The notes beneath the pieces are model-generated. The model saw only the letters and a list, made by a program, of their open reading frames with translations, did not search any database and was not told the origin of the DNA. Below, piece by piece: positions 19,423 through 53,590 of a stretch of DNA of 64,000 nt (positions are counted from its first letter, which is position 1; every line of letters begins with the position of its first letter). The position numbers and the translations under genes were made by a program. Source of the stretch: Tubiluchus corallicola (taxonomy: Eukaryota > Animalia > Priapulida); the NCBI GenBank assembly GCA_030141605.1, contig JAQGDQ010000426.1:124001-188000 (forward strand), in the 5' to 3' direction.

Positions 19423-22400
19423 TCACTTCGTTAAGCTGTCTTTTAATTTTGACAAAGTTTTTTGAATGTGGTCAAGTACGCCATCGCCATCGGCGTCTAA
19501 GTCATATCTGTCCGGTATACCATCTCCATCTTTATCCTGTTTGTGATCAGGTACACCGTCACCATCATGGTCATCATCTAAATGGTCCGGAATGCCATCC
19601 TTGTCCAAATCTTCATGCACATCTAAAATGCCATCATTGTCGTCATCATGATCATGAATATCTAGGATGCCATCACCATCTGTATCGCGATGAGCATCGG
19701 TTTTGCCATCACCATCTGCGTCCAAATCCCACCTATCTGGAATGCCATCTTTGTCTTTATCTTGTAAATGATCTAGTATGCCATCACCATCATGGTCTTT
19801 GTCAAGACTATCAGGTATTCCATCCTTGTCAGTGTCCTGGTGAACATCGAGAATACCGTCACCATCAGCATCTGCATCCCATCTATCTGGTATCCCATCT
19901 TTATCGGCATCTTGATGCATGTCCAAAATGCCGTCACCATCATAGTCACTGTCCAAATGATCTGGTATACCGTCGCCGTCAGTATCTTCTGCCTTATCTG
20001 GCTGGCCATCTCCATCATGGTCAAAATCATCATGTGTATCAATTATTCCATCTCCATCATGATCATGGTCCCATCGATCAGGAATGTTATCTCCATCAGC
20101 GTCTTTCAGAAAGTCTAGAATTCCATCACCATCATGATCAGCATCCAATGAGTCTGGAATACCATCAGAATCTTTATCTTGCAGTCTATCCAGTATTCCA
20201 TCTCCATCAGCATCTATATCCCAGCGGTCTGGGATTCCATCACGATCACTGTCCTTTAATCTGTCGGGTATGCCGTCACCATCATAATCTTCATCAACAT
20301 TGTCTGGTATTCCATCACTGTCATGATCTTCCAAATGATCAGGTATGCCATCGTTATCATCATCAGTATCTACACAATCCGGAATTCCGTCTTGATCAAA
20401 ATCTAATTTGTGATCATCACAGTATTTATCTCCATCACTATCATGGTCCCACCTATCTGGAATGCCATCATTGTCACGATCCTCATCTTTGTCTAATATG
20501 CCATTTCCATCTGCATCTGCATCTAAACTACTGATGATTCCATCATTATCGCGGTCTTGTATAGAATCAAGTATATAATCCCCATCTTTGTCAATATCCC
20601 ACCTGTCTGGAATGTTATCTCCATCTAAATCTTCTAACTTGTCTAAAATTCCATCACCATCATAATCAGGATCCATATAGTCTGGAATTTTGTCGCCATC
20701 TCTATCTGTTAATCTGTCCTGTTTTCCATCTTGGTTTGCATCATTGTCCCATCTATCAGGTATACCATCATTATCACCATCCTCATTATTGTCGGGAATG
20801 CCATCATTGTCAAAATCTGAATCTTTGTAATCAGGAATGGAATCATCATCTGTGTCCCAATCTTTGTCAGGTATACCATCACCATCTGCATCTCTATCCC
20901 ATCGATCAGGAATGTCATCTCCATCCATGTCCTCATCTTTATCTGGAATACCATTTCCATTAGCATCTTGATCTATACTATTAGGAATGCCATCCTGATC
21001 ATCATCTTGAAGGTAATCAGGAATTCCATCATTATCAGCATCTATATCCCATCGATCAGGAATACCATCTTTATCTAAGTCTTCAAGTAAATCTAAAATT
21101 CCGTTTCCATCCATATCTGGGTCATATTTATCTGGTATGCCATCTCTATCTGCATCTTCTGTATTATCAAGTTTGTTATCTCCATCATAATCACGGTCAC
21201 GTTTATCAGGAACACCATCATTGTCCATGTCATATTCATTATCAGGAACTCCATCGCCATTAACATCAATGTCCCATCGATCGGGAATTCCATCTTTATC
21301 TTTGTCTTCAAGTTTGTCAAGGATACCATTTCCATCAAAGTCGGCATCAAGCTTATCTGGAATACCATCCTTATCTAAATCCTGCAGATAATCTGGGATG
21401 CCATCCCCATCAGCATCTCTATCATATCTGTCAGGAATTCCGTCCCCATCACTATCTTCATTGAAGTCAATGATACCATCACCATCTGAATCGGAATCTT
21501 TGTAATCAGGTATACCATCTCGATCTCTGTCATGAAGTAAATCTTTCTTTCCATCACCATCTGCATCAGAATCCCATCTGTCTGGTATACCATCATTGTC
21601 TTTATCTTCTTGCCAATCAATAATTTTGTTGCCATCGTAGTCACTGTCCCACAAGTCTGGAATGCCATCATGGTCTGTATCTTCTATTAGATCAATAACA
21701 CCATCTCCATCAGCATCAGCATCGAGGCTATCAGGAATCCCATCACTATCCATGTCCTTGATTGTATCAGGAATTCCCTTTCCTGATGGGTCTACGTCCC
21801 AACGATCTGGTATGTTATCTTTGTCAGCATCCTCGTATTTGTCTATTTTTCCATTATTATCATAGTTAGCATCCATCCAGTCAGGTACACCATCTTCGTC
21901 AAAGTCCTGAAATTTGTCGAGAATATTGTCGTTATTTGCATCAATATCCCATCTATCAGGAATTTTGTCGTCATCAAAATCTAGTTGGCTATCAATAATT
22001 CCATCACCATCATAATCTGGATCAAGGTAGTCAGGAATACCATCTTTATCGAGGTCTTCAGCAGTATCTGGAATACCATCATTGTCATCATCAGGATCTT
22101 TACAGTCTGGTATACCATCTTTATCTGTATCTACATGACTGCAGTCATTAGTATCATGGTCCCAGCGATCTGGGATTCCATCTTTGTCGGAATCTTCTAA
22201 ATAATCTAGTATACCATTACCATCATAGTCAGGATCTAAGCTATCTGGTATGCCATCATTGTCTTTATCTTGTTTTCTGTCCATAATGCCATCACCGTCT
22301 GCATCCATGTCCCAACGATCAGGTGTTCCATCACCATCAGAATCTTTGTGTATATCTAATATACCATCTCCATCAAAGTCAGCATCTAAATGATCTGGAA

Positions 22401-23009
22401 TTGAGTCTTTATCTAGATCTTCTTTTCTGTCTGGTATTCCGTCACCATCTGAGTCATGATTTTCAGGCAAATCCCATATGCCATCTGCATTGTAGTCGTG
22501 ATCCCATCTGTCTGGAATTCCATCTTTGTCTTGATCTTCTAGATGATCAGCAATACCATCCCCATCAAAATCTGGATCAATTCTATCCGGAATTCCATCT
22601 TTATCATAATCTTGTTTCCAGTCATCAATGCCATCACCATCTGCATCATGGTCCCACCTGTCTGGAATTCCATCTCCGTCTGCATCTTCTAAATGATCAG
22701 GAATACCATTGCCATCATAGTCTGAATCAAGATGATCTGGAATACCGTCATTATCAGTGTCTTCTAGTCTATCAGGTATGCCATCACCATCAAGGTCGGA
22801 ATCGTGGTGTAAATCAAGTACTCCATCACCATCATGATCTAAATCCCATCGGTCAGGAATGCCATCATTGTCAGCATCCTCCTTATAATCGGGAATACCA
22901 TCACCATCGATATCATGATCGTGGATATCTAAAATACCATCTTTGTCTATATCATGATGCTTTTTATCTTCTACGTCATTGTAAGAGTATTGTGATGCAT
23001 CATTCAGTT
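19423..23009 (-). CDS. Repeat exon of the secreted DxDxDG protein
   Basis: Matches the 1208-aa ORF. The residues before E-L-N-D in that ORF (MLHLMIVFCSIIS) are intronic polypyrimidine tract. Confidence 0.93.
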
Positions 23010-24725
23010 CTGAAATAATAGAACAAAAAACAATCATTAGATGCAACATTAGAGGCTAGCCAAGACCCGGCAAAAGATTTTACTCATAAACGCCAATAAT
23101 GCGCAAGCATGCTACATAGTGTTCGTTTATTATCTACGCACTTAAAAATAATCTGTTAGATATTACCATTAACGCAAACCCAGCAGAATGGAATGACGTC
23201 AGAGCAATGCAAGCGTCAACGAGAATCGCCCGAAATGGAGCTTCCGAAAAACTCCTCTTGGCGAATGTTTCCCCAAAAGCGACTCACATAAACGTGTAGC
23301 CCTATCCCCCTCTTTCCAAATAGCTGCAGATCTTCCTCCCAGACCCCAATCAGGTGCCGCTGGGACGTTTTTTCTACAGTGTGTTCTTCTAAAAGTTCCA
23401 AAAAATCGGATAGATGTGTCGGGAAAAACGAGCGTTGAGAAAAGTCGTGGGTTTGAACTTGCCATCAAACTATTATGAGCACTATTATACCGCGTGAGAA
23501 ACAAGAGGTATAAATTTTCGCCCCTCCGTTCCTCCCGGTGTCCCGGATTCGAAAAATGAACCATCAACGAGGCGACATTTGATCGAGAATTTTCGTTTGT
23601 AATATAGAACACCGCAAATGATGCAATCATTAAAACTGTAGCCTCAAGTCTTGTATATAAAAAACGTGCCATACCACAGATATTAATATTATAGAAGATT
23701 TAGATGTAAAACCCAATTTTTTGTTTCGTTTTTTTTGGTGAAATGAAACACCCTTATTTTGGTAGAAAAAGAACTGTTGCTCAATGAACCTTAACAGCCT
23801 AATTTAAACGCTACAAGAACGTTTAGGAAAGACTAGTTGCAAGAAATCTTCGTTGTATAAATTCACGTAACTCAATCACACTTTTGACAATAATACCCGT
23901 TTATATTATTTATTTTTATTGTGTTTAATGCTTCACAAATTGACTAATGACTGGCAAAAAGATGTGATTAAAAGTTCATCTCAACCTGGAATCGACCACG
24001 CTCTGTTTGCAAGTCAAATCCTCTTTCTAATAACAATCAATTCGTTCAACGCTTTCAGCCACTGTAGCACAGTTTAAACAATAGTCTAACATGTAATACT
24101 ATTGTTTAAACTGTGACTGTAGTGTATAAGATAGCTTTATTTGTTAACAAACTGGACGCAAACGTCATCGGTTAATCGCTTAAATGAAAAAGACTGACTA
24201 TCACAGCGTGACATAATCAATGTGAAAAAAACGGAAGCGGAAATAATCCCTGTGTCGAATTAAGAAACCAGAAACCAAGATTTTAGTTTCGTGAAAAGAA
24301 CGGTTTTTACCAAGGCTGTTTTTACCGCGAAAGATCTTGAAGACTGCAGTAGCATGCATGGCAGACTATATTTATTTGTTATTTGTTTTATTCACTCTCC
24401 TCATATACACAAATTACAAAAAATACATATTTAATATAGAAATTTGGCATAAAGACTACACATTACTCAAAATAAATATCTAAATAGCATTTCAAAAATT
24501 TTGTGCATGACTAGAGAAAGGGAATGGTCTGCACAACGTAGGCCTACATAAACCTGTATAAACGTTGATCAGCAAATTCTAAAATGCATTCACACCTTTA
24601 TAGGTTAGTAAAATGAGTACCTCTCACTGATCTGTAAAATGAATATCATACTCACCTTGAGCAAATGTCAGATGAGCTGCATTCCAAAGAGCGGAAATGC
24701 ATAAAAAACAAAGCATTAACTTCAT
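19423..24725 (-). CDS. Secreted Asp-rich DxDxDG (thrombospondin type-3-like) repeat Ca2+-binding protein, two exons, ~1218 aa
   Basis: Exon 1 (24725-24656) encodes the signal-peptide-like MKLMLCFLCISALWNAAHLTFAQ and ends CAAG|gtgagt. Exon 2 (23009-19423) begins after tttcag| in compatible phase 1 (E-L-N-D..). It is an uninterrupted 3.6-kb ORF of ~90 DxDxDG(I/V)(P/L)D motifs ending ..QKTLSKLKDSLTK*. Confidence 0.9.
24656..24725 (-). CDS. Signal-peptide exon of the secreted DxDxDG repeat protein
   Basis: ATG AAG TTA ATG CTT TGT TTT TTA TGC ATT...GCT CAA G|gtgagt: basic N-terminus, hydrophobic core and a T-F-A/Q cleavage-like end. Confidence 0.82.
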
Positions 24726-24799
24726 TATATCACCAAAAACAACCGACTAGACGCGATACGTGGAAACGACAAAATGTGCAGAACACAAAATTCGCTTTC

Positions 24800-24840
24800 C
24801 AGTGCGTTTTTGGCGACAAAATGGATCCAGTATTTATCAG
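24800..24840 (-). promoter_or_regulatory. Possible core promoter (GATAAATA TATA-like element) of the secreted repeat gene
   Basis: Minus-strand GATAAATA at ~24838-24831, ~105 bp upstream of the ATG; positional inference only. Confidence 0.3.
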
Positions 24841-25448
24841 GTGTTTAAAACAGCAAAACACGCCTCTGGTCAAGCGGGGCCAGTCATTAGGAAAGTGTCG
24901 TCTTTAGCGTGTTGCCTAGGAAGGGAAGCATTATAAATTACCACCTCGAGCAATATCAAACTTGTTTCAGGCAGTCAGGCAGTTTTTGTCGAATGTTGAA
25001 AAAGTTTACTTCAAACATGCATTTCTTTACTTACCAATGTCATTGTCAGGGACATTTTCATGTTGCTTCTTAATTAATATAAGTCTGCGTGGAAATGTTT
25101 ATTTAATTGAGGTTATTAATTATAAATGTGACGCAGTTGGCAAATTTATAAGAGAATTCTGTCTTGAGATTTGTTGAGTAGAATAGGATTGTGGATGCGC
25201 CCATTCCAGGCAAAGAAACGGCAAAAATCAGTATGGAACTGTGCGATAGACCTGCAATTTATTAAAATAACAGATCACAAAAAGTGCTTAAGAATGTGTT
25301 AAAGATTGGTCAAGATTTCGGACTGCAACCACGCAGTCCAGTGTTTAAGAATAGCGGGTGCCAGGGCCAAGGCAAATAGCCTACATTCGTTATTTGGGTG
25401 TTGCCTCCTTGCCTGTACTGTTGTCTGTACAAGACGCTAATCAGCCAT

Positions 25449-25835
25449 TGTAAAGCAAAGTAAAGTAAAGTAAAGTAAAGTAGAAGTAGAAGTAGAAGTA
25501 GAAGTAGAAGTAGAAGTAGAAGTAGAAGTAGAAGCAGAAGTAGAAGTAGAAGTAGAAGTAGAAGTAGAAGTAGAAGTAGAAGTAGAAGTAGAAGTAGAAG
25601 TAGAAGTAGAAGTAGAAGTAGAAGTAAAGTAAAGTAAAGTAAAGTAAAGTAAAGTAAAGTAAAGTAAAGTAAAGTAAAGTAAAGTAAAGTAAAGTAAAGT
25701 AGAAGTAGAAGTAGAAGTAGAAGTAGAAGTAGAAGTAGAAGTAGAAGTAGAAGTAGAAGTAGAAGTAGAAGTAAAGTAAAGTAAAGTAAAGTAAAGTAAA
25801 GCAAACCAAAGTATAGAAAAGTAAAGTAAAGTAAA
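25449..25835. repeat. Compound microsatellite (GTAAA)n/(GTAGAA)n
   Basis: Directly visible. Confidence 0.97.
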
Positions 25836-27296: not shown

Positions 27297-27404
27297 GGCC
27301 CAGTTTTACAAAACCGTTACCAACTTAAATATGTCGTTATTAATAGTTAAGCTAACGTAACAGAGACGACGTAAACTCAGTGACGACTTTGTGAAACTAG
27401 CCCC
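27297..27404. mobile_element. Small MITE (Harbinger-like ends)
   Basis: Imperfect TIR GGCCCAGTTTTACAAAA / TTTGTGAAACTAGCCCC. Confidence 0.45.
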
Positions 27405-28511
27405 AGGTCTCAAATCTAAGACGTTTTAAAAATAATAACCTTGCTATCGATCTGAATGCATTGCAAAAAGGAGTTTTTATTCCCTGGTGCTGTACGTACT
27501 TTTGCTGTTACTAGGACACGTCGGATAAGACGAGCTAATGTCGTACACAGGCTAATATCGGACAATGAACTTCACGTTGTTAATAAAAACAAAGAAACAT
27601 TGACACCCCTTTTCCCCTTCTTTATTAATAAAGGAAAGGAAAAAGCGGTTCATTGTACTTTGTTATTTTTATTAAATCCTGAAGCTCATTGACCGACATT
27701 AGTCATTTCTGCCATGTACGTAATTATTATATTTCACGATTTCTTTGTATATAAACAAATTTTGCAATAACTGCGCTGCCACTTTAACATCAAATAGCAT
27801 TCATATCAAATATTAATATTTCTCAACGTTGTGTTATTGTTTTTTTTCGCAATTATGAGACAAATAAAGATGAACTTACTTTATTAGACCTAGGTGTTAT
27901 GTAAAAATAATTTCTTTACTAGAATACTAAAATAAGGCATCAGTATAGATCATCGAAACAATATGTGTTAAATGCGAAATGTATCAGTTTCTGCTTTTCG
28001 TTACGAGGCAAAAATTAAAATTTTTGTATAGCTTGATCAATCTTTAGAAACTTGTTAAAAGCCGTGTCATCAAACGCAGATAAAGCTGGACAATAAATTC
28101 TTCAGCCCAAAATCTTTTTCAAAAAAATGAAGGATTAAATTACTGTTTGAAGGAAAATTCCCTCTGTGACATGATTTATCTATAAATTATAATCGAAAAC
28201 GCTGACTGGCTGACCAGGCATATGTATCTGTCACGTGACTGTCACGAATACATCCGGGCTTATGTCACTGACAGACGGCTGATGCAACCTGCGCAGGAAA
28301 TTTTATGCGCCACCACCTCAAAGTTAATTTCGTGGCGCATCTTGTATTCTGTGGTCGGTTTTGTGGAATTTTTATTTTTAAAACTTTCAGAATCAAATTT
28401 ATATATGGCTGACGTTGAAAATTTCAACACGTAACTTTTGGTATCTCCCTGATTTTAGTTGTACACAGCAGAGTGGAGGGACGAATAAATTGAGCATTGG
28501 TGATTTGCCTA

Positions 28512-28662
28512 TTATAGAGGTGACAGGGCTTCGATTTGGGCTTCCGTTAGATCCGGATGCCAGAAATCTACTAACAAAACTAGCCGATAGGCGTCGCCAT
28601 CGTTCCACACTTCGTGATCGAATGAGTCGTCGAAGATTATCACTTTGCCCTCTTTCCATGCT
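28512..28662 (-). CDS. ASPH: ASPH terminal exon with second Fe-ligand His
   Basis: AWKEGKVIIFDDSFDHEVWNDGDAYRLVLLVDFWHPDLTEAQIEALSPL*; ttctag| acceptor; minus-strand AATAAA at 28376-28371. Confidence 0.96.
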
Positions 28663-31600
28663 CTAGAAATGAAAAAAGTGTGATACTATCTAGGATTACT
28701 TATATTTTTTATACAAAGACATTCAAGGCAGATCTTTCTTCGTAATTGTTGTCTTGCAAATGCTTTAAGTAATGCTTACAAATGCTTTAAGTAATGCTAA
28801 TCAAAAAATTTTATAATTTGAATCTGCAACACTCAACAAAATCTGCCAGTAGTAACAACAATCAACAATTTTTGTAACTGCATATTTTATTTGTGTAATT
28901 TAGCATCACTATGCCAAATGTTTTTTTCCATTTATATTCACTTACCAGACATTGTGTTTATGTAATCATACCAGCGTTCTTTAATTTTACATTTGCAGTT
29001 ACATAGTTACAAGTATAGTTACAGTTGTTCTAATTTCACTATAGAACGCATTTCTAATTTACTTTTTTACCTCATAAACTTAATATTTACAGTCATTTGC
29101 AAAAGTATCAGACCACCTCCAGAAATCCACCCCCGCATCACTTGTAGCTAATATGCCTCGCCGACTGCAAGCAGCCATTGATGCTCGTGGGGGGGGGACA
29201 CAACATACTGTAATATCTTCAACAGGACTCTTAAATACAGTAAGAATACGAATCTGAACATGTTGTGTTAATTTTTCTAAGATTAGACAACAATAATGTT
29301 TGTCTTATCAGTATATTGAGAATTATATTATTTACTATTATTGTCCAAGACAGTGAGACTTAAAGGTAAAGTTCACAAAGCAGTGGTCAGACCCGCCCTA
29401 ATCTATGGGCTGGAAGCTGCACCTCTAAAGAAGGCAGAAGAGAAGAAAATGGATGTGGCGGAGATGAGGATGTTGAGATGGATTGTGGGAGTAACAAGAA
29501 GGGATAAAATCAGGAATAGTAATATTAGAGGAACAGTGAAAGTAGTGGAAGCCTCGAAAAGTATACAAGAGGCAAGATTGCGATGGTATGGGCACCTGAA
29601 AAGAAGAGTTGGGGAGGATCACGTGGGAAGGGAGGTCATGGAAATGGAAGTGCTGGGAAATAGAAGAAGAGGACGACCCAAGCTGAGATGGTATGAATGT
29701 ATTAACGGAGACCTTAGAGAGAAGAACATAAATGAAAAGATGGTCAACAACAGGAATGCATGGAGAAGACTTATTCACAACGGCGACCCCGCATAGGGAA
29801 AAGCTGGAAAGAAGAAGAAGAAGAAGAAGAAGAAGAAGACTGTTATTGTCCAAGCCAGTAGATTTGTTCTTACTAGAAATAATGAAGTTGAACTCAAATG
29901 AAAATGTATTTAACTCCTGTTGTTGATTAATTGCATTATTAACCCAAAGTGTTTTTATCGTTTCATAACAATTTTGACCTGTATTTCACATAAAATCTAA
30001 ATGCTATTTTAGTTTAATCAAGATTGACCATATTTTGTTGCCCGCTAATTCAAGTACATGTATTTTCTTTACTCTGGATTATATAGCAAATGCCATAATT
30101 TTAAAATCATTAATGTTTCCTAAATTAAACTGATAACATTAATGCCCACCAGTGTCTAAAATCATTTCATCTATATTCGGTATAGGATAGCAGACTAAAT
30201 GACTTTATAGTCTTTTCGCTATCCTTTCTCTAGTTCTAGATCTATCTATTCATTTTAACCATTCTTCAAAACTTATTAGCAATTCTTTTATTAATCATGT
30301 TTTACCGTAGTGTTATAAAGACATAAATAAATTAAAATTGAATTGAAAAAATAAAGAATTTTATGTTTCCATAAAGTCACGTTTTCCTAATAAATGCCTT
30401 TTTCTCAGGGGTGGTGCGATACTTCTGCAAATGGCTTTATCAAATAAACAAGAAAATCACGTGACATTTAACATTTATACTGTTTCAGTTATACTTTCTC
30501 ACCTTGTTTCCTCTCCTACCCTCATTCTAGCTCCTCTAGGAACTTTTAGCCCCAAGTGTGCACGTATCCTAGTGTTTGTGGGACCCGTATGCGGCCAAAC
30601 GTGGGTGCCAGGTTGCATCAGTGAAAACGTGACCTATAAAATTATAATATAGTTATGAAATGACCTTGAAAAAATAATAATCGGCTGCCCATTTAACCTC
30701 ACATTAAAAATTGTTCATAACAGCGCCATTGCATGTACAATTTTGCATAATAAAAAATCGATTAAAATAAACACGAAAATAAAATAGTGTGACCTTGACC
30801 TTACCTGACCTCTCTTACAGTTCGCTGCTGCTTCAATCTCGTCGATTATTGCACACGTTTTGGATGCTCGTCTGCAGTTTTTATAAATTTTTTGGCCTGC
30901 AAAAACGTTCAAATACTAAAGGATCACGTTATAGTTATAATACTCCTAGTTCAAAAGCATATTATCGTTGTAAATAGGGCCGGATTATGACTTTTGAAAC
31001 CCCTAGGCTAATGAAATTGTAAGGGGCCCCTATGATGGAGCCACCCTCTAAGTTGCTCGCGCTCGACTCGAGTATTTTTTGCTTGTGATATATTTCAGCT
31101 AAATTTCCCATATTTCAAATAAAGGGCTTTAAAGAAGGGCCCTTATCTCAAATAGAGGGCCTCGAACAACCGCACTTCGTCTCAAATAAAAGACCTTAAA
31201 AGAGATCCTTTATCTCATATGAGAAGCCACTTTAAAATTGGATTTTCAGATTTCCTGGCATCCTTTTCTGAAATTGAAATTTTATTTTAAGTTATATGTT
31301 GTTGGCATCCTTCTGTCTCGGAAGACAATGGAGTGTGCGCCAAGAGAGTCAGTTATTGATCACATTGATGGAGCTGCAGCGTCGACGGAAGACAATGGAG
31401 TGTGCGCCCAGAGAGTCAGTTATTGATCACAGTGATGGAGCTACAGCGTCGACTGTGGCTGAGCAATGCGAATGTCTCCAGGGCGCACGCCTGGGCAAGG
31501 TGTATGGAGATCCTGAGTTGCCCAGACAACAGGAAGCCCTCTCTTCCTCCCTGGTGTAGTCCAAAGGAAAGCGGAGCGATACGTTTGGCACCAGGTTGGT

Positions 31601-34600
31601 TGCAGGAGCTGCCGGAGTCAGTGAGCGAAGGCATAAGTTATATAAATTATTCAATAATGCAAGGCATTGGCCTGCAAGCTTGAGGGGTCCTGGGCTGCAG
31701 CGTATAATAGCCTACAGAGTAATCCAGCCCTGATTCTAAGATTAATTAGTATTAATAGGCAACACTATTAATTTCCATGAATTAATTAAACTCTATGAAT
31801 TTGTTGCAAAACATTTATATTACCTTGTTTGAATAAATGAAACCTTTTCCAGTCGCCGTCGGTGTAACTAAGGCCCTCGTCTTTGTACATACCGCTGGAG
31901 GAGTCCATGTATTTTATTGCTTCGTCTCGTATAGTCTCCCAGTTGTTTTCTAGAAGCTAAAATGCACAAAAGATTGTCGGAAGAGCAAAACCCGATAACT
32001 GATCTAATAGTAAGTTTATTAATCCAATTAAAATGTGATTAATCGTGCGCGTGTCATCCTATCAACACAGCCTGTAAGTTAATGCAAAAATGAGCCAATC
32101 TGCTCAAGTGAAGAAGTCAATTGGTGCCTTGGTGGGTCATTTGGCTAGTCAGTCGGTCAGTCAGTTAGTCGGTGCGTTTAGCACATTAATTAAAGAGGTG
32201 CATTTCTGTTGACTGGTTGGTTTGAGTTTAAGGTTTTTTTACAATGCACATGTGTGAGTATAATATACACGTTATAATGAACACGTACAGTCATCTGATT
32301 GGTCAATGGACAATTGTACACGTACAGTCATCTGATTGGTCAATGGACAATTGTACACGTGTACAGTCATCTGATTGGTCAATGGACAATTGTACACGTG
32401 TACAGTCATCTGATTGGTCAATGGACAATTGTACACGTGTACAGTCATCTGATTTGTCAATGGACAATTGTACACGTGTACAGTCATCTGATTGCTCAAT
32501 GGACAATTGAATTCGTCAGTCAATTATTTTGTTGTATTTTAAAACCACAACGTTTGGCTATTAAAAAATACAGTAAAAACACACAGGTAACTAAGAGAAA
32601 ACGAGAATTATACTATCTTAATCACAAATTGCAGATGTGCAAATTTTATGCCAAAAATGTTGGTCAGATACAACATAACTAACCTCAATGGCTTTTACTT
32701 GTTTAAGTTCTTCTGGCGTCCACCAGGGTTTTGCGGTGAGACCTTCCACGTTGTAGATATTTGGGGATCTCTGCCACATAGATGGATACAAACCTTTTCT
32801 AGCTCCAGCCTTGTAAACTCGGTACGCCTGAAACAAACAAACATCATCATTTCAGTATATATTACATAGTTACATAGCACTTAAACCCTTCCATATATTA
32901 CATAGTTAGCACTTCAGCCCTTCCATATATTACATAGTTAGCACTTAAACCCTTCCATATATTACATAGTTAGCACTTAAACTGTTCCATATATTACATA
33001 GTTAGCACTTAAACCCTTCCATATACTACATAGTTAGCACTTAAACCCTTCCATGTATTACATAGTTAGCACTTAAACCCTTCCATATATTACATAGTTA
33101 GCACTTAAACTCTTCCATATATTACATAGTTAGCACTTAAACCCTTCCATATATTACATAGTTAGCACTTAAACCCTTCCATATATTACATAGTTAGCAC
33201 TTAAACTCTTCCATATATTACATAGTTAGCACTTAAACCCTTCCATATATTACATAGTTAGCACTTAAACCCTTCCATATATTACATAGATAGCACTTAA
33301 ACCCTTCCAAATATTGCATAGTTAGCACTTAAACCCTTCCATATATTACATAGTTAGCACTTAAACTCTTCCATATATTACATAGTTAGCACTTAAACCC
33401 TTCCATATATTACATAGTTAGCACTTAAACCTTTCCATATATTACATAGTTAGCACTTAAACTCTTCCATATATTATATTGTTATGTAGTCAGACATTAC
33501 ACAACACTTGAGTTAAAAAAGACAGCAGGTTGTTATAGGATTTACATGTCAAATGTAGACCTACGTTAAGTCAAATGTAGATTTAGGTAATTCAAATGTG
33601 TCTTGGTAGCTCAAATATAGTCTTAGGCAGTTCAAATGTGTTAACAATGGTTTTCAACAAATCTTAAGCGTTTTTTGGTAAGTCAAATGTAGACACATGT
33701 CAAGTCAAATGTCCTATGTCTACATTTGACTTACCTAAGTCACATTTGAACTTTCCTATGTCCACATTTGACGTGTAAAACCTATAGTGCCGTAAAAAAT
33801 AATAGTACAAAATTATTACCTTTAATAGACAACGTAATTACCTGCTTGGAATCACAACTGAACTATTACCACATCTATTCTCAATGCTTAGCTTTTGGTC
33901 ACTTCCCCCTAAACTCTCATTAGCGTTTCTGTTCTGGTATTTGACCCTACCTAATCAGTCTATAATGTGGCAATCTATTACAGCCCATAATAGTTTCTAT
34001 CCATCAGTTATAAATGTGACCCGTTGTTCTTGCCGTATTTTTGACAGCAAGCAACACCTGAATAAATGTCTTATTTAATATTGTTTTCACGTTTAATGTG
34101 GACCAATTCTTTAATTAACTAATGTGGATTTATTTAACGTTATTATTTTTGTTTTCAGTTCTTTTTGGATAATTTGTATCATTTATACTGTTTTTATTAC
34201 TATTTTTTCTTATTTGTTTTTGTTTTTGTTATCAGCGGCATCACCGTTAATTTTTTATTTACTAATCTATTTATAACAAAGGACAGGAGACTAGATGACC
34301 CTATGGTCCTTCCCTGCTCTGCTCCATGATTATAATTACTTATTATTTAAAAAACTTTTGATGTTAAACTAATTGGAGAAAATAAATGTTCTATGTCTAT
34401 ATGTCTATGTCTATGTCTGTTTCGAATGCAGGCAAGGATGCCTTTCTTACCTCATGTTTTTTACCATCTCTGTAATAAATGTCCGCTAGGTGGTAGAAGA
34501 ATTTTGCGTCTGATGCACCGACTTCTTCACACTTTATGCCTTGCTCTAGGTGTGGTACAGACTCTTGTGCCTTGTTGTACGTAGTTTTCAAAATGAAACC

Positions 34601-37600
34601 CATGTACGCATGCGCAAGACAATTTTCCGGATCTTTCTGAAGAACCTGGTTTAAAGACAGTTAAAAGAAGGCGGTCATTGTTTGGATTACACACTTTGGC
34701 AAATACATACACTAAGTGATGTTCATTAATCTTTTTGACATTTTGCATTTTATATTAATTATTTTTAACATTAATTCTTATCTGAGTATCGCCCTATTCT
34801 AAACTGTCAAAATGCATAAAACAAAACGTCGTAAAACCAAAAATAAGTTTCCCACAGGATAAAATTAAACAAATAAATAAGTAATTATTAACTAATAATA
34901 AGTAAATAAACAAAAATGCAAATATATGAAAAATATGAGCAACGCAGAACTTTAAACAATGTAGTACTGTACACTACATATGTGTTGGGCTATTACTAAA
35001 CTTTAACTAGAAATTCTATAAAAAAAAATCCCTCTGGGTTGAAAAACGCACAGTTAAGGTAGTCTCCTGATTCTAAAAACCATAACACTAAAAAGCAGCG
35101 TCATTTTGTAATTCAAATTTACCAAGCATTTTTGCTGCTGAAATGAAATCAATACTGTCTTTCTTCGTTGTTTTACAGTTCACAAAAATCTCAGTTTTTA
35201 ACACTTTGATTACCAAGTCAGAACGTTCAGATACAGTCAGCATGAAAAAGAGGGACTCCACAGACTCTGTGATACGGGAAAGGAAGCAAACAAAAGCAAG
35301 TTTACGTACGAATGAAATTACAGGGTTGTTTGATCTACAACAAATCGTTGAACATCAAATGGCAACAACAACTACTGTTCAAAATAAGATAGAACTGTTC
35401 CGAGACTGTCATAATCAGTAAGAGAGGTCAAAATGCCCCTGGGTCTCATTTTTTGTTTTCCATTCAGAAGCGCTGGTTCCTCGCGGACTTCATCAGATGA
35501 AATCAATTTAAAAGACGATTTACGTTATACAAGTTCAGCTGATAAACTTCCCGAGGCACGAAAGCTTATGAGGGAAAAATAAAGCATTTTTGAGACTCTG
35601 TTTTAGATATAAGCACGTGGTGCCTCCTTGTGTTTGTTTTTTTTTGCAAAATGAGGCTGTTGATCGACAGGTGAGCTAGGACTTGAATTAGGCCATTGGC
35701 CTCATTTTGGAGACAGGATAGGAAAGAAGTCATTTTTGTTCAGTATGTAGTATCGCTTCATGATAAAATTTATCAGTCGAGTTCTGTTTAGCAAGTTAGT
35801 AAGATGCGGCAAAGATGTAAGTTTGATTTCCTCATATTTCGTCATGTCATATTATTATTAATTATCGTTATACCAGTTACTTAATTTTGGATTAGCAGAA
35901 AGAATTTTTATTTGCTTCAGATAAAACGAAGTCGAGTCGCACATATTATGTTAGTCAGTCAGTCAGTCAGTCAGTCAGTCAAGTCTGTCATGATGTGATA
36001 GTGATTTCGGAATATGACGATAATTGGCCATTTTCCATTGTCATGATGACAATAAAAATCATGAATTACATCTAAAAGACTCGTATTTAGCGCATGTCGG
36101 GCACAGACCCTAAGGGCATTTTGATTCCTTTTGACATCTACCATTCGATATTCATATCGGCTATCTGTCGGCTGAATCTTTCATCCTTCGCATAGCCAAA
36201 GAATAAAAATCTTGTAGCAGTTCTAATTTTGCCATAAAACGTTCGACATTATAAACAATTTTCGTCGCTACTTGATTGGTTCACTTTTCCAAAATGAAAA
36301 CCCAGCACCAGTTTTTTTTGGTGCCTTTGCTACCTTCTCAAATATCTTTTCAGCTTCCATTGGCTTTCCGAAGTCGAGCAATCCTATCCCCTGCTCATTT
36401 CTCAGCTCCATGCTATTCGGATACCTTTCTACCAGGTCGTCCAAAACTCGCTTGGCTTTCTTTTGGAACCCTGACAACAGAAGAAATAAGCAAACCTAAT
36501 TACAAGATTCAATCAATGGTAAAACGCAAATTACTGTCAAGGATTTTAGATTATTTTATTACTTTAGTGTTTGTTAGTGTCTCTGAGAGGCATTTATGAC
36601 AACTTCAAAAGTCTCAGCTGAATTTTCATGAAACCACTGATCTTTATTTCTGCAATATTTAAAAATTAAAACAGAAAGGCAAAAGTGACTGACATTGGCT
36701 AATTTTATGAAAAGTTACATAGTTTAGTTAGATTGACAGTTATTTAGTCCATTCATAAATATCAGTGAATAAATCTAAATAAAAATTAATAGAAGTAAAC
36801 TTACATCGTTGCGGCATATATCTAATGAAATGTTTCGCTAGCTTGTACAAGACACATGTTCACTCATACTACATAACAGCATAATGAAAACATAACTAGG
36901 TCAATGCCCACACTTTAAACTTTCTAGCTAGATGGAGCCACCTTGGCTACAAAATTAAAATTTATTAAGTCAGGTTCACACTGGCCTTAATAGTGTTCAC
37001 TCATTCTTAACCCCCCCCATACTGTTTCTCTTTTCATTCATGTATGTATGTCTTGGCCTGGCTTCTTTTTGTCTGCTGACAGATCAAGTTACTTGGTCTG
37101 TTGGCAGTCTGTTCCTGTGTTGTTGCTTGTCTCAGTTAAACCATTTATTTGTCAAGAGTAGCAGAGTCATTATGTAAGTACATTTCTTGTTTCTCACTGT
37201 TATTTTATTATTAATTGCTTTGCTTCTTTTTTTAAGCTCAAATTAGTTTCTTATATTTTGTTGTGATTATTCTTACTTACGCAATAAAGCTACTCAAACA
37301 TGAATTCTTATTACGTATTGAGTAACATGACTCTTATTCTTACTTAAAAAAGCTACTCAAACACGAATTCTTATTACGTATTAAGTAACATGACTCTTAT
37401 TCTTACTTAAAAAAGCTACTCAAACACGAATTCTTATTACGTATTAAGTAACATGAAACTTATTCTTACTTAAAAAAGCTACTCAAACATGAATTCTTAT
37501 TACGTATTAAGTAACATGAAACTTATTCTTACTTAAAAAAGCTACTCAAACATGAATTCTTATTACGTATTAAGTAACATGAAACTTATTCTTACTTACG

Positions 37601-40600
37601 CAATAAAGCTACTCAAACATGAATTCTTATTACGTATTAAGTAACATGAAACTTATTCTTACTTAAAAAACTACTCAAACAGGAATTCTTATTACGTATT
37701 AAGTAACATGGAACTTATTTTTACTTAAAAAAGCTACTCAAACACGAATTCTTATTACGTATTAAGTAACATGAAACTTATTCTTACTTAAAAAAGCTAC
37801 TCAAACATGAATTCTTATTACGTATTAAGTAACATGAAACTTATACTTACTTACGCAATAAAGCTACTCAAACATGAATTCTTATTACGTATTAAGTAAC
37901 ATGAAACTTATTCTTACTTAAAAAAGCTACTCAAACACGAATTCTTTTTACGTATTGAGTAACATGAAACTTATTCTTATTAAAAAAGCTACTCAAACAC
38001 GAATTCTTGTTACGTATTGAGTAACATGAAACTTATTCTTACTCAAAAAAGCTACTCAAACATGAATTCTTATTACGTATTGAGTAACAGGAAACTTATT
38101 CTTACTTAAAAAAGCTACTCAATGAATATTTTGACTCTGGGCATCATGAAAGTAGTAATCTCCCCCAATTACGATGTTTGTAAACAACTGTAATGCTTAG
38201 AGATTATTGTTTGTCACTAGTTTTTCCAAATTCTACAATGAAATAAATAAACAAACTGGGAATTCGAACGAAATGGAAAAGCCTCAAGGGTTTTTGAATG
38301 TAGGACAACGTATATTTATTTCGGATGTTAGAGAGAAGTTTCCACTTACACTTATGTAAATACGGATCTGTTAGAAAACACACACGGAAATTACGAAAAC
38401 ATTCTTACCTTACTGTTGTCGTCTCAGTATCACTGGAAGAAAAATAAAATAATCGGTTACCTCTAAATCGGAGTGCCTCCACTTCCTTTATGCCTGCATA
38501 AATCACAAGAACCAGTGGGGCGTCAGGTATTTCTACAACGTGGCCAAACTCTGCTACAGCATCTTCCAATAATTTGTTGCTCTTTTTGAAATCTGCTAGT
38601 TCGTGAAGAACCAATCCTTTGCCGAAATGCGCTCTCGGACTCTTAGGATGCGATCGAAGAATCTCGTCATATTTGTCTTTGGCGGCGTGGTACATGCCCT
38701 GCGTTCATTAATTTACATTGTCACTCTTAAACAAGCAAATGTCCAGAGCACGCATTCGTAAATTTATCATATATGGTTATCATATACGGTTATTTTACAT
38801 ACGTAGAAGGGGACTTTAGGAAATGATTGCACTTCCAACTTCCTGTGTACTGAAGAAACCGAAAAGAATAGATAAAAATCTATTGCACTGTGAAAAAGAG
38901 TATTTAGTTTTACATAAAGGAGATTTATCATACCTAATGCCTGATAATACGCAGCACTGACCATGAATGGCCATGAATGTCCACGCGTTCATAATGGTTT
39001 CTCATCGAAAATGCCGCCATTTCTTCAACAAATTAACTGATTTTTTTTATTTTTAGCACTAAAATGTCGAAAGGATTTAAAAAACACGTTAAATAAAAAT
39101 CATTATAATGATTAGAATATTTTAAAAAATACATTAATATTTTAAGTATAGCTATCATTTCCTGATACCCCGTGTAATTTCTATTCCAACATTAGTGATT
39201 AAATGGTGTCAAACATATAAAATGCCTAAGTTGCCAAAATATGTGTTAACTCACAGTGTGAACAAAACCAGAACGCCATTAATTATGATCTCCGATTCCA
39301 AAATGCAGGTCCCAGATCTACAATCTCAGGACACCAAAAGACTTTATCTTAAACCTTGATATTGAATAGGTAATGCTGTAGGCAACTGGTGATTATGAAT
39401 GGCATTACAAAAGAAAAAATTGTTGGAAAACTGTGCGAGAAATGCTTGTCAAAGCTTTTTGATTACTGTGCCAGAAAGGCAAAGTTTGTTTTACCTTGTG
39501 CAATAAGTCATCTGCCATGTCAAGGTCTTTACGAATCTTGCTGTCATATTCATTTGTGATGTCTTTATTTCTGTACTTCAGCCGCTTGCCAACTCCCAAA
39601 TCTTGTTCCCTTTCAGCTGCTTCTCGTGCACTTACTAAGTTCAGGGCATCAAAATCTTCAGCTACTGTTGCATCACTGACAAAGCTATCAGATTCGTCTA
39701 CGTCGCTTTGACCACCTTTACGAGCGTAGCCATGAGGTTGTGCTTTTTGGAGTGAATCTAGTATGCCATCGCCGTCAGCATCATCATCCAGGTAATCAGG
39801 AATTCCATCACCATCTGTGTCAATCTGCTTCCAGTCTGGAATTCCATCGCCATCCTTGTCTTGCAGCTTATCTGGAATGCCGTCACCATTTGCATCATCG
39901 TCTAGATAATCTGGAATTCCATCGCGATCCGTATCAATTTGTTTCCAGTCTGGAATTCCGTCACCATCTTTGTCTTGTAGATGATCAGGTATGCCATCGT
40001 TATTGTCATCGTCATCAAGATAATCCGGAATTCCATCACCGTCGGTATCAATTTGTTTCCAGTCTGGAATTCCATCACCATCTTTGTCTTGCAGGTGATC
40101 AGGTATGCCATCATTGTTATCATCGTCATCCAAATAATCTGGAATTCCATCACCATCTGTATCTATCTGTTTCCAGTCTGGAATTCCATCACCATCTTTG
40201 TCTTGTAGGTGATCAGGTATGCCATCATTATTGTCGTCATCATCAAGATAATCTGGAATTCCATCACCATCTGTGTCGAGGTCTTTGTCTTCCTCAATAC
40301 TTGCAAGTTTTCTTTTTTTGAAACCACTTCCTTGTTTACTGTCTGGAATACCATCACCATCTGCATCATCATCCAAATAATCTGGAATTCCGTCCCCATC
40401 TGTATCGACTTGCTTCCAATCTGGAATTCCATCACCATCTTTGTCCTGTAAGTGATCTGGTATTCCATCATTATTATCATCATCATCTAAATAATCTGGA
40501 ATTCCATCACCATCTGTATCAATCTGTTTCCAGTCTGGAATTCCATCTCCATCTTTGTCCTGTAAATGATCTGGGATGCCATCATTGTTATCATCATCAT

Positions 40601-42624
40601 CTAGGTAATCTGGAATTCCATCTCCGTCAGTATCGATTTGTTTCCAGTCTGGAATTCCATCTCCATCTTTGTCCTGTAAATGATCTGGGATGCCATCATT
40701 GTTATCATCATCATCTAGGTAATCTGGAATTCCGTCTCCATCAGTATCAATCTGCTTCCAGTCTGGAATTCCATCTCCATCTTTGTCTTGTAAATGATCT
40801 GGGATGCCATCATTGTTATCATCATCATCTAGGTAATCTGGAATTCCGTCTCCATCAGTATCAATCTGCTTCCAGTCTGGAATTCCATCTCCATCTTTGT
40901 CTTGCAAGTGATCAGGTATGCCATCATTATTGTCATCATCATCTAGGTAATCAGGAATTCCATCACCATCTGTGTCAATCTGCTTCCAGTCTGGAATTCC
41001 ATCACCATCCTTGTCCTGCAACTTGTCTGGAATACCGTCACCATTTGCATCATCATCTAGGTAATCTGGGATTCCATCACCATCAGTGTCTATTTCTTGC
41101 CAGTCTGGAATTCCATCTCCATCTTTATCACCTTGTAGTCTATCTGGTATACCGTCGCCATCTGCATCATCATCAAGGTAGTCAGGAATACCATCACCAT
41201 CTGTATCAACCTGTTTCCAGTCTGGAATTCCATCACCATCTTTGTCTTGAAGATGATCAGGTATGCCATCATTGTTGTCGTCATCATCTAGATAATCTGG
41301 AATTCCATCACCGTCTGTATCAACTTGTTTCCAATCAGGAATTCCATCACCATCCTTATCCTGTAACTTGTCTGGAATACCATCTCCATTTGCATCATCA
41401 TCTAGGTAATCTGGGATCCCATCACCATCAGTGTCAATCTCCTGCCAGTCGGGAATTCCATCTCCATCTTTATCACCTTGTAGTCTATCTGGAATGCCAT
41501 CGCCATCTGCATCATCATCAAGATAATCAGGAATGCCATCCCCATCAGTATCAATCTGTTTCCAGTCTGGAATTCCATCACCATCTTTATCTTGTAAATG
41601 ATCTGGGATACCATCATTGTTGTCGTCGTCATCTAGGTAGTCCGGAATTCCGTCACCATCAGTATCGATTTGTTTCCAATCTGGAATTCCATCTCCATCT
41701 TTGTCCTGTAAATGATCTGGGATGCCATCATTGTTGTCGTCATCATCTAGGTAATCTGGAATTCCATCGCCATCAGTATCAATCTGTTTCCAGTCTGGAA
41801 TTCCATCTCCATCTTTGTCCTGCAGATGATCAGGTATGCCATCATTATTGTCATCGTCATCTAGGTAATCTGGTATTCCGTCCCCATCAGTATCGATTTG
41901 TTTCCAGTCTGGAATTCCATCTCCATCTTTGTCCTGTAAATGATCTGGGATGCCATCATTGTTATCATCATCATCAAGGTAATCAGGAATGCCATCACCA
42001 TCAGTATCGATTTGTTTCCAGTCTGGAATTCCATCTCCATCTTTGTCTTGCAAGTGATCAGGTATGCCGTCATTATTGTCATCATCGTCTAAGTAATCTG
42101 GAATTCCATCACCGTCTGTGTCAATCTGCTTCCAGTCTGGAATTCCGTCACCATCTTTGTCCTGCAACTTGTCTGGAATGCCATCACCATTTGCGTCATC
42201 ATCTAAGTAATCTGGTATACCATCTCCATCGGTGTCGATATCATGTAATGCTTCCTTGTCTAGTAATGTTTGGCCACCTTTTTCAACTTTTTGTTTTGAC
42301 GAATGTTCTAAAATAAAATGAGCACAATCAGTGCAAGAGGATATGCGCCCACATAATCCAATATAAGAACAAATGTAAAAAACTGTATCTCTATTTTTTT
42401 CAATTTCAATTACAACTTGAAAGACTTTATTAGATTGTGTTTGTAAGTGCTGCAGTGATTTTCTACAGGAAAAATATGGCATTAATCAGCAAAGGAAAAC
42501 CTGTTCATTTCTCACCTTGAACTGTTGCGTCTGTGTCTAAAACAAAGAAAAACACTCCACCGACCAGCAGTAGAAAGACAAAAAGTACACAAAATGTGAG
42601 TTTATTGGATCCTTTCCCTTCCAT
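28512..42624 (-). CDS. ASPH: Aspartyl/asparaginyl beta-hydroxylase (type II ER membrane 2OG/Fe(II) dioxygenase) with a giant DxDxDG-repeat luminal domain, 10 coding exons, ~1380 aa
   Basis: In-frame GT-AG exons: 42624-42516 (TM anchor), 42307-39495 (repeats), 38698-38461, 36470-36334, 34645-34451, 32827-32684, 31956-31824, 30896-30805, 30633-30503, 28662-28512. The TPR region (PKSPRAHFGKG, GFILK, FFYHLAD) and oxygenase motifs (WQRS..PWWT, LENNWETIRDE, GDW, PGTHVWPHTGPTN, FDDSFDHEVW, RL...VDFWHPDL) closely follow vertebrate ASPH. Confidence 0.95.
29350..29838 (+). mobile_element. 5'-truncated RTE-clade LINE in last ASPH intron
   Basis: ORF with RT C-terminal motifs ([44 protein letters not shown]); (GAA)n tail; ~16-bp TSD ACT(A/G)TTATTGTCCAAG. 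Confidence 0.92.
29933..30346 (+). repeat. Second copy of the 5019-5437 dispersed repeat
   Basis: Direct sequence match including the AATTG tail. Confidence 0.75.
30503..30633 (-). CDS. ASPH: ASPH oxygenase exon with first Fe-ligand His
   Basis: VTFSLMQPGTHVWPHTGPTNTRIRAHLGLKVPRGARMRVGEETR; ttatag| and |gtgaga. Confidence 0.96.
30805..30896 (-). CDS. ASPH: ASPH oxygenase exon
   Basis: GQKIYKNCRRASKTCAIIDEIEAAANCKRGQ; ttgcag| and |gtaagg. Confidence 0.93.
30975..31732. mobile_element. Probable hAT-type non-autonomous element in ASPH intron
   Basis: TIR TAGGGCCGGATTA / TAATCCAGCCCTG; degenerate TSD; GC-rich interior with a ~69-bp tandem duplication. Confidence 0.6.
31824..31956 (-). CDS. ASPH: ASPH oxygenase exon
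   Basis: LLENNWETIRDEAIKYMDSSSGMYKDEGLSYTDGDWKRFHLFKQG; ttttag| and |gtaata. Confidence 0.93.
32283..32508. repeat. Minisatellite, 39-bp unit x ~6
   Basis: GTACAGTCATCTGATTGGTCAATGGACAATTGTACACGT repeated. Confidence 0.95.
32684..32827 (-). CDS. ASPH: ASPH hinge exon
   Basis: AYRVYKAGARKGLYPSMWQRSPNIYNVEGLTAKPWWTPEELKQVKAIE; tttcag| and |gttagt. Confidence 0.94.
32857..33478. repeat. Minisatellite, 32-bp unit x ~19
   Basis: ATATATTACATAGTTAGCACTTAAACCCTTCC repeated. Confidence 0.96.
33538..33782. mobile_element. Foldback MITE with internal TCAAATGT subrepeats
   Basis: Ends GGATTTACATGTCAAATGT / ACATTTGACGTGTAAAACC, flanked by TATA on both sides. Confidence 0.7.
34451..34645 (-). CDS. ASPH: ASPH TPR exon
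   Basis: VLQKDPENCLAHAYMGFILK..ESVPHLEQGI..DAKFFYHLADIYYRDGKKHE; accag| and |gtaaga. Confidence 0.93.
36334..36470 (-). CDS. ASPH: ASPH TPR exon
   Basis: GFQKKAKRVLDDLVERYPNSMELRNEQGIGLLDFGKPMEAEKIFEK; gtcag| and |gtagca. Confidence 0.92.
37268..38121. repeat. Minisatellite, ~63-bp unit x ~13-14
   Basis: AAAGCTACTCAAACATGAATTCTTATTACGTATTAAGTAACATGAAACTTATTCTTACTTAAA repeated. Confidence 0.95.
38461..38698 (-). CDS. ASPH: ASPH TPR exon
   Basis: GMYHAAKDKYDEILRSHPKSPRAHFGKG..LRFRG; cgcag| and |gtaacc. Confidence 0.93.
39495..42307 (-). CDS. ASPH: ASPH exon 2: ~21-22 x 38-aa DxDxDG repeats plus start of TPR region
   Basis: ttttag|AA acceptor; repeat unit DTDGDGIPDYLDD-DDNNDGIPDHLQ-DKDGDGIPDWKQI. 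It ends ..NEYDSKIRKDLDMADDLLHK|gtaaaa, resembling ASPH NKFDKTIKAELDAAEKLRK. Confidence 0.92.
42516..42624 (-). CDS. ASPH: ASPH first coding exon, signal-anchor TM (MEGKGSNKLTFCVLFVFLLLVGGVFFFVLDTDATVQ)
   Basis: Short basic N-tail plus ~21 hydrophobic residues; donor CAAG|gtgaga. An acceptor at 42657/42656 implies an upstream non-coding exon. Confidence 0.85.
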
Positions 42625-42795: not shown

Positions 42796-43087
<292 letters not shown>

Positions 43088-50879: not shown

Positions 50880-51410
50880 AAACCAAACGAAATGAAACGA
50901 AACGAAACGAGTCGAATTGAATCGAATCGAATCGAAACGAAACGACACGAAATGATAAGAGTCGAATTGAAACGAAACAAAACAAAACGAAACGAGTCGA
51001 ATTGAATAGAAACGAAACGAAACGAAACGAAACGAAATGAAACGAAACGAAACGATTCGAACTAAATCAAAACAAAACGAAACGAAACGAAACGAAACGA
51101 AACGAAACGAAACGAAACGAAACGAAACGAAACGAAACGAAACGAAACGAAACGAAACGAAACGAAACGAAACGAAACGAAACAAAACAAAACAAAACAA
51201 AACAAAAACAAAACAAAACAAAACAAAACAAAACAAAACAAATAAAACAAAACAAAATAAAACTATTGGACCTATTGTGTTCTCAAACTATGCTGTGTTC
51301 TCAAACTATTGGAGCTATTGTGTTCTCAAACTATGCTGTGTTCTCAAACTATTGGACCTATTGGGTTCTCAAACTATTGGAGCTATTGTGTTCTCAAACT
51401 ATGCTGTGTT
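50880..51410. repeat. (GAAAC)n/(AAAAC)n microsatellite followed by a short TGTGTTCTCAAACTA tandem
   Basis: Directly visible. Confidence 0.95.

Positions 51411-53080: not shown

Positions 53081-53590
<510 letters not shown>

Follow-up and report, generated by a model that had tools for sequence, protein, structure and literature searches.

How does the acidic region of a hydroxylase come to consist of a long array of calcium-type loops, and why does a second, non-catalytic gene beside it encode an array of the same kind? The question is raised by a stretch of 64 000 nucleotides from the priapulid Tubiluchus corallicola (contig JAQGDQ010000426.1, positions 124 001 to 188 000), which is referred to here as the window. 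On its minus strand an ASPH gene is followed downstream, on the same strand, by a two-exon gene that we term gene B, the distance from the ASPH stop codon to the start of gene B being ∼3.8 kb. A neighbouring gene in the window encodes arginine kinase. The initial annotation of this DNA proposed that the two array genes form a tandem pair, gene B having been born from the first two exons of ASPH. Both genes are present as described, with the correction that eight further ASPH exons, extending to 28512, lie inside the interval that was annotated.

The ASPH gene is modelled as 10 exons running from 42624 to 28512 on the minus strand and encoding 1380 aa. All the introns of this and the gene B model are of the GT-AG type, and each reading frame is free of internal stop codons and ends with a single terminal stop. 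The ASPH features are as follows.

42516..42624, minus strand: exon 1, coding part; an 8-residue N-terminus, a 21-residue hydrophobic stretch and a phase-1 donor; RNA joint 42307/42516.
39495..42307, minus strand: exon 2 (2813 nt); a 21-aa leader, the 64-loop DxDxDG array and an acidic linker up to the TPR region.
About 42242-39745, minus strand: the array (residues 59-891), within exon 2; RNA pieces and joint 38697/39494.
38461..38698, minus strand: exon 3, TPR region; matches human ASPH 359-419 with E 1.3e-7; RNA joint.
36334..36470, minus strand: exon 4, TPR region; gene model with a weak TPR match.
34451..34645, minus strand: exon 5, TPR region; gene model and an RNA contig.
32684..32827, minus strand: exon 6, hinge between TPR region and oxygenase; RNA joints on either side.
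31824..31956, minus strand: exon 7, start of the oxygenase domain; PF05118 with E 1.2e-4; RNA joint.
30805..30896, minus strand: exon 8; placed by frame and splice sites alone.
30503..30633, minus strand: exon 9; residues aligned to human S668, H679, R688 and H690.
28512..28662, minus strand: exon 10 with the stop codon; residues aligned to human D721, H725 and R735; RNA contig 28376-28633.

An in-frame TGA is located at 42645, upstream of the ATG. The upper edge of RNA cover lies near 42652 (an estimate from bin depth), and since the RNA reaches past the in-frame stop, 42624 is the likely start. The hydrophobic stretch of exon 1 (hydropathy 3.08 over 19 residues) is predicted to be a type II membrane anchor. 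It is the single N-terminal anchor indicated by hydropathy, and is followed by a region that is acidic in composition; we infer a luminal topology for this region by transfer from mammalian ASPH. A TPR region precedes the oxygenase, and PF05118 is matched by exons 7, 9 and 10. Alignment to human ASPH structures reveals His at positions 679, 690 and 725, Arg at 688 and 735, Ser at 668 and Asp at 721. Thus both Fe-binding histidines (H679 and H725) and the 2-oxoglutarate-binding R688, H690 and R735 are present; these five are named as the metal and 2-oxoglutarate ligands (PMC12816917). Judged by its conserved catalytic residues, the enzyme looks intact. The region before the TPR is of unusual composition, with 315 Asp and 13 Glu in 946 aa, and the Glu-rich luminal domain of the mammalian type is absent from it. 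A homolog search with exon 3 gave no matches among 144 candidates, and nothing was retrieved at E 10 when the PDB was searched with exon 1 or with the end of exon 2.

Is this gene expressed as modelled? An RNA run of 13.2 million letters (X2) was classed as RNA by an arginine kinase contig that is both spliced and polyadenylated. The ASPH pieces of this run diverge from the window by some 6-11%, and the run therefore derives from a diverged population or close relative. Contigs bridge introns 1, 2, 5 and 6, that is at least four of the nine among the joints listed, and they cover several parts of the array, the whole of which is spanned by none. The ASPH array is thus transcribed, and splicing joins it to the anchor exon on one side and the TPR exon on the other, as the initial annotation had modelled the repeat exon. 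A frame artefact or bacterial contamination was rejected in view of the spliceosomal introns with RNA joints. There is no gene B contig in X2, where the matches are cross-hits of the ASPH repeats; this has no bearing on the expression of gene B. A search of sequencing runs listed none with RNA for gene B.

Gene B comprises two exons on the minus strand encoding 1218 aa, of which 34% are Asp; the splice 24656/23009 is a model based on the sequence.

24656..24725, minus strand: exon 1; a short hydrophobic core and a phase-1 donor.
19423..23009, minus strand: exon 2 (3587 nt); about 91 loops of DxDxDG type, with alternating 13/12 spacing.

Exon 1 is predicted to be a cleavable signal peptide, with small residues at -3/-1 before Gln23 when examined by eye. 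Exon 2 contains four Cys in two pairs, and a predicted C-terminal helix. The first exons of both genes (42624-42516 and 24725-24656) end TCAAG/GTGAG, and splice in phase 1 to ag/AAC at 42307 and 23009, respectively, just as had been noted.

Loops matching D.[DN].[DN]G..D number 64 in ASPH and 76 in gene B, whereas 200 shuffles of each gave 2.3-2.4 on average and never more than 7, and the giant DxDxDG exons that had been described are thus confirmed. With a looser pattern 91-92 loops are found in B over 1165 aa, while exact copies of the DxDxDGxxDxxD motif number 22 in ASPH and 36 in B. A six-frame reading of the whole window shows DxDxDG loops nowhere but in these two arrays. The 64 loops of ASPH occupy 833 aa with a 38-aa period (13+12+13), and contain only 9 distinct 12-mers; the B array has a period of 25/50 aa, and its loops are nearly all distinct. 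The leaders and ends of the arrays are alike as originally described, but the higher-order periods differ. DADGDG terminates both arrays, and is the commonest hexamer of B (11 of 91 loops, compared with 3.5% in 204 other array proteins).

The DNA of the 38-aa units of ASPH is 85% identical, compared with 61% for the 25-aa units of B. Among the 18 ASPH units there are 2045 silent codon differences to 230 replacements. Taken with the 85% identity, this silent excess shows that the ASPH array has been homogenized while under constraint, and the lower identity shows that the B array is old. Comparison of gene B with contigs from a second set (X1, which may be the source sample) gave 10 silent differences among 17, against an expectation of 19-27% (p 0.0003-0.005), where the 17 are the best-supported subset of allele differences, beyond which a further 163 rows lie. 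Since these differences are mostly silent, gene B looks functional. Both arrays are under purifying selection. They have likely evolved apart, the ASPH array being homogenized continually and that of B being old and diverged.

What fold might such repeats adopt? The T3 motif of thrombospondin is DxDxDGxxDxxD (PMC10702128), and the Pfam TSP_3 profile gives 63.5 bits for ASPH and 58.6 bits for B against a cut-off of 25, although no single stretch passes alone. TSP_3 was the only family found by a Pfam scan of the two repeat exons, with no calsequestrin or thioredoxin-fold domain. Matches of the arrays to PDB sequences were to COMP and a bacterial TSP3 protein alone. A model built from an alignment for 100 aa of B (pLDDT 77, pTM 0.44) contains no helix of four or more residues; a single-sequence fold, at pLDDT 51, was uninformative. 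The matches of the B model to known folds are weak, both with Foldseek (COMP, E 5e-4, TM 0.25, rmsd 11.8) and in a VIA comparison (Z 3.2, rmsd 11.6), and are headed by COMP and thrombospondins. By analogy, both arrays are likely to fold on calcium into thrombospondin-like wires. An EF-hand identity was rejected; the loops abut, leaving no room for the helices, the array model is free of helix, and the Pfam EF-hand match has E >1.

The likeness to the TSP3 repeats of thrombospondins (PF02412; COMP 3fby; thrombospondin 1ux6, 1yo8 and 2rhp) lies in the DxDxDGxxDxxD motif and 13-residue spacing. Unlike those proteins, the window arrays have no repeat cysteines and no EGF or lectin domains, and run for 50-61 loops without interruption. 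The DxCD cysteine motif and NxxQxDxDxDG, patterns based in part on the COMP alignment, do not occur in ASPH or B; DxxQx variants occur 20 times in ASPH.

The uninterrupted grammar also distinguishes these arrays from those of other proteins. At a spacing of 12-14 the unbroken runs are of 50 loops in ASPH and 61 in B, whereas the longest run is 5 among 204 other array proteins (most of them bacterial to judge by name or domain, and many unnamed) and 4 among 79 loci drawn from collections of genomes and metagenomes. Units with 12-residue spacing end in Q or E in 18/18 cases in ASPH, 32/41 in B and 17/17 in three flatworm proteins. Such spacings are scarce in the 204 other proteins, at 219 among 8559 loops, and end mostly in T, V, A or S. 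This points to either an animal family, or convergence on a single structural solution. The bacterial TSP3-like arrays (PF18884/PF02412, of T9SS and OmpA surface proteins; PDB 5wtl) share the loop core and are low in Cys, with up to about 50% identity to the window arrays. However, their loops occur mostly as pairs with spacers, in runs of no more than 5 with the 12-residue Q/E unit being rare, whereas the window arrays are continuous. Recent transfer from a bacterium was rejected, as no close donor stood among the matches listed and the spacing differs.

Among the matches listed (the best 120 of 5857 and 120 of 4761) at least three carry animal names, two being from tapeworms and one from a fluke. 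Further members came from cluster look-ups, namely a protein of Hymenolepis, a fragment and another fluke isoform.

Hymenolepis VUZ40289.1, Rodentolepis VDO07929.1 and Spirometra KAL7064494.1: uncharacterised flatworm array proteins, full-length and stand-alone, with signal-peptide-like starts.
Calicophoron CAL8077034.1: fluke array protein; a signal peptide and GRP94-type HSP90, then the array; automatic gene model.

The array of the fluke model and the Hymenolepis protein share 56% identity across 814 alignment columns. As modelled the fluke protein is a second link of the module to an ER-type protein, and may be two merged genes. The flatworm proteins resemble gene B in the signal-peptide-like start, and the window arrays in the GIPD core, the 13-12-13 spacing and 12-residue units ending in Q or E. 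They differ from ASPH and B in that their 30-43 loops are grouped into blocks of no more than 9, with regular Cys and with flanks rich in Lys/Pro, and they have no ASPH domains. The ASPH and B arrays likely belong to an unnamed animal family that also occurs in tapeworms and flukes.

An array-bearing ASPH (PF05118) was not present among the best 120 of 5857 and 120 of 4761 matches, these being length-limited searches crowded by bacterial repeats. The 102-aa end of ASPH exon 2 had one match in 1.84 billion representatives, to the repeat part only, and one metagenome locus that was also repeat-only. The ESM Atlas gave leads <0.9 only, and none of 60 pattern matches in viral contigs was confirmed. 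Our reading of the open-access literature, supplements aside, brought up neither an array-bearing ASPH nor the flatworm array family. The parts are known, while the architecture, the uninterrupted grammar and the pairing of ASPH with B appear to be undescribed.

Are the two arrays related by descent? When the units were ranked against 210 comparators, ASPH came first for B by two measures and 4th when only the five variable loop positions were counted. In the opposite direction B was placed 3rd to 13th for ASPH, and 25th at the variable positions. From the ranks of 25 and 4 at the variable positions it follows that some bacterial loops are equally close, and for both arrays the flatworm units come below 97 of 210 there. 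Moreover, such motifs are argued to arise readily in acidic sequence (PMC3123361). Considering the unit ranks together with the adjacency and the like two-exon layout, we regard common ancestry of the arrays as probable. The initial annotation went further in deriving B from ASPH exons 1 and 2, and here the support is partial. Kinship of the arrays is probable given the rank of 1/210, but nothing outside them aligns; this is so for the N-termini (p=0.14) and for intron 1 (p=0.79), and when exon 1 together with its upstream DNA was compared between the genes, a single patch of 26 bases emerged, with p=0.02 in one of several such comparisons. The similarity of splice sites and array ends that had been offered as evidence is present, but carries less weight than had been implied, the splice match being close to consensus. 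CAAG/GT is found at 4/9 ASPH donors, and the exon-9 donor is the same as that of exon 1 across CAAG/GTGAGA. The last units of ASPH and B are best matched as 13-mers (rank 1/91), but only second best as 12-mers.

The direction of descent could run either way, and the probabilities expressed here for origin form a set separate from those for function below. That a single DxDxDG loop of an ancestral ASPH expanded, with a copy of exons 1 and 2 becoming gene B, is a tentative reading. It accords with the single loop carried by mammalian ASPH in the region of the array, with the terminal and common DADGDG hexamer, with the matched terminal 13-mers, and with the common strand, ∼3.8 kb separation and phase-1 layout. 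Yet duplication of exons 1 and 2 in place would be expected to leave the short copy upstream of ASPH, and B lies downstream. No remnants of ASPH exons 3-10 were found downstream of B, the similarity is confined to the arrays, the units of B are far more diverged than those of ASPH, and the grammar is common to the stand-alone arrays of flatworms. These last proteins suggest the converse, since the existence of stand-alone arrays with signal peptides means that B may belong to an older family that was the donor of the array to ASPH. ASPH would have captured the array of its neighbour, by exon copying or gene conversion, and amplified a three-loop unit. We find this quite plausible, while falling short of an even chance. 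Besides the 13/12 grammar of the flatworm family, it has in its favour that the ASPH unit DDNNDGIPDHLQ is nearly identical to the flatworm unit DMNDDGIPDHLQ, that the older-looking array is that of B, and that the fluke model suggests a module able to join ER-type genes. Against it, the array shares one exon with the ASPH linker to the TPR, at the place where ASPH's own loop sits, and the flatworm units have the low rank noted above for both arrays. An independent origin of the two arrays takes up what probability remains.

Turning to function, we favour a reading by analogy, to which we assign an even chance, that the ASPH array and gene B constitute an anchored plus soluble high-capacity calcium buffer in the ER and secretory pathway. 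The ASPH array would sit between the predicted membrane anchor and the TPR-hydroxylase part. Extrapolating from thrombospondin and COMP, the arrays would bind calcium via Asp at loop positions 1, 3, 5 and 9, and Asp, Glu or Gln at position 12. Because thrombospondin motifs form binuclear calcium sites (PMC3123361), each chain could plausibly load some 100 ions in order of magnitude, at one or two per loop. Capacity would equate to loop number, the ASPH wire being anchored and the B wire soluble. Since the ASPH array takes over from both the single DADGDG loop and the gamma-carboxylated Glu-rich domain of mammalian ASPH, calcium capacity would be achieved by repeat number and not by vitamin K chemistry.

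The absence of KDEL or HDEL from gene B makes default secretion as probable as retention in the ER, and for this reason the main rival is that B is exported, as an acidic protein of the extracellular matrix, mucus or mineralization that is functionally unconnected with ASPH and has only a common history with it. We consider this possible. Gene B has a predicted cleavable signal peptide and its 34% Asp, the known TSP3 proteins are extracellular (COMP, thrombospondins and bacterial surface proteins), and the flatworm relatives also have signal-peptide-like N-termini and no terminal KDEL. However, the module is also carried by ASPH, in what is predicted to be its ER-luminal part, and by GRP94 in one gene model; N-glycosylation sequons, RGD and matrix-binding domains are all absent from gene B; and calsequestrin is retained without KDEL. 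Another view is that the ASPH array is a calcium-stiffened spacer or calcium-dependent switch that holds the hydroxylase off the membrane, buffering being incidental. Bacterial TSP3 arrays lie between anchors and head domains in a manner comparable to the ASPH array between anchor and TPR, and the luminal EF-hand of junctate is described as a calcium sensor (PMC7796502). But B is nearly all array with the head domain missing, and allele differences cluster in the ASPH repeat units, which suggests that the exact length of the array is loosely held. We think this unlikely. The proposal that ASPH hydroxylates Asp or Asn of B as an enzyme-substrate pair fares worse. The genes are adjacent, the proteins would share a compartment during biosynthesis, Asp and Asn are plentiful, and potential non-EGF substrates of ASPH have been noted (PMC9293771). 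The enzyme prefers a 10-residue disulfide ring C-X-D/N-X4-F/Y-X-C (PMC9293771), and gene B has no match to this consensus; its Cys pairs are 13 and 15 apart, and a partial match is without the second Cys. Lacking the ring, B is a very improbable substrate.

The favoured calcium buffer could be extended to an invertebrate substitute for calsequestrin. A Cys-poor wire family would be free in the lumen, or bolted independently onto ASPH and GRP94, and the ASPH and B wires would co-condense on calcium as a store, replacing calsequestrin and the Glu-rich domain. This we regard as rather doubtful. In any case the locus bears on calcium buffering in the invertebrate ER/SR and on what the acidic region of ASPH, which is poorly conserved, is for. 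In place of that region the present enzyme, which looks catalytically intact, has calcium-type loops that can be counted, with a soluble counterpart encoded alongside; this would allow a direct test of the idea that the conserved job of the region is calcium capacity, provided by gamma-carboxylation in mammals and repeat expansion here. The locus also draws attention to a repeat family of animals, as yet unnamed, that tapeworms and flukes possess, and such a genetically encoded calcium sponge may serve as a reagent.

How does this arrangement compare with known systems? One account of mammalian ASPH places it in the ER as a type II protein, its parts being a luminal EF-hand, a gamma-carboxylated Glu-rich domain and a hydroxylase (10.1101/2022.05.13.491370). 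The rat peptide given in that source, LGVYDADGDGDFDVDDAK, has a single DADGDG loop and fits the DxDxDGxxDxxD skeleton; the same source reports 39 Glu in the Glu-rich domain of mouse ASPH, and such domains in several invertebrate homologues (10.1101/2022.05.13.491370). Junctate, humbug and junctin are described as calcium-handling products of the ASPH locus (PMC1764734, PMC7796502). The mammalian protein, with its relatives junctate, humbug/ERGP and junctin, thus resembles window ASPH in its anchor, acidic luminal loop region, TPR and 2-oxoglutarate oxygenase. It differs in that window ASPH has 64 loops in place of one, ∼8 residues N-terminal to the anchor, and almost no Glu, leaving little scope for gamma-carboxylation. 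The non-catalytic partner also differs. Junctate and humbug are products of a non-catalytic transcript of the ASPH gene that keep the anchor, and are thus splice forms, whereas B is encoded by exons of its own, outside the ASPH gene, and begins with a predicted cleavable signal peptide. Calsequestrin is built of thioredoxin folds, and has no sequence or Pfam relation to the window arrays. With junctin and triadin it may be considered a functional analogue only, where a soluble acidic buffer is paired with an anchored product of the ASPH locus, as we propose for gene B and ASPH.

Past the exon-2 donor of the ASPH gene the reading frame stays open for 29 more codons until a stop (window 39494-39405, minus strand), and an AATAAA lies 3′ of this read-through stop within intron 2 (window 39051, minus strand). 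Read from the sequence, these elements define a possible candidate isoform carrying the anchor and array but non-catalytic, and so resembling humbug, a non-catalytic product of the mammalian ASPH locus. The array itself is divided into 50 and 14 loops by a basic insert containing KKRK, with a 30-residue spacing (about 40285-40345, minus strand). Contigs of sequencing run X1, which may be the source sample, differ from the window in a cluster within the last ASPH units (39839-39891), and contain DxDxDG-coding letters that match neither the ASPH array nor that of gene B, the neighbouring predicted secreted protein. Additional array genes, contaminants or polymorphism in repeat order are alternative explanations. 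The two cysteine pairs of gene B (residues 313/326 and 887/902) both fall at breaks in the regular loop spacing, and are possible disulfide hinges.

Upstream of ASPH two consensus donors may belong to untranslated exons of the gene; one of them is overlapped by an inverted similarity (46081-46248 versus 50153-49986; 71% over 173 bases). The surroundings contain the following features:

50089 and 49758, minus strand, consensus donor sites
29320-29820, 13258-13689 and 57926-58065, retrotransposon fragment copies, 93-94% alike, of the reverse-transcriptase C-terminal type
32270-32510, 32860-33480, 37270-38120, 25450-25830, 42800-43085, 50880-51260 and 53085-53590, minisatellites (ASPH introns) and long microsatellites (around genes), identified by eye
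678-15727, plus strand, arginine kinase gene, convergent with gene B
near 678-781, 7764-7927, 10686-10834, 11491-11656, 14223-14409 and 15157-15299, plus strand, arginine kinase exons

The retrotransposon fragment, presumably RTE, has very high depth in X1. Three arginine kinase introns are spliced in a single contig of X2, an RNA-like run, ending in poly(A) at 15727.

Related arrays occur in flatworms. Two gene models of the fluke Calicophoron daubneyi (CAL8077034.1 and CAL8077031.1; P0185/P0212) combine the flatworm DxDxDG array with a signal peptide and an HSP90 of the GRP94 type, and are either true fusions or merged genes. Between the two parts RRLL occurs twice (801 and 835), and these motifs could be processing sites. 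The uncharacterised tapeworm proteins P0086, P0112 and P0124 each have about 30 DxDxDGIPD loops with regular cysteines and Lys/Pro-rich flanks, an unnamed family that merits separate study.
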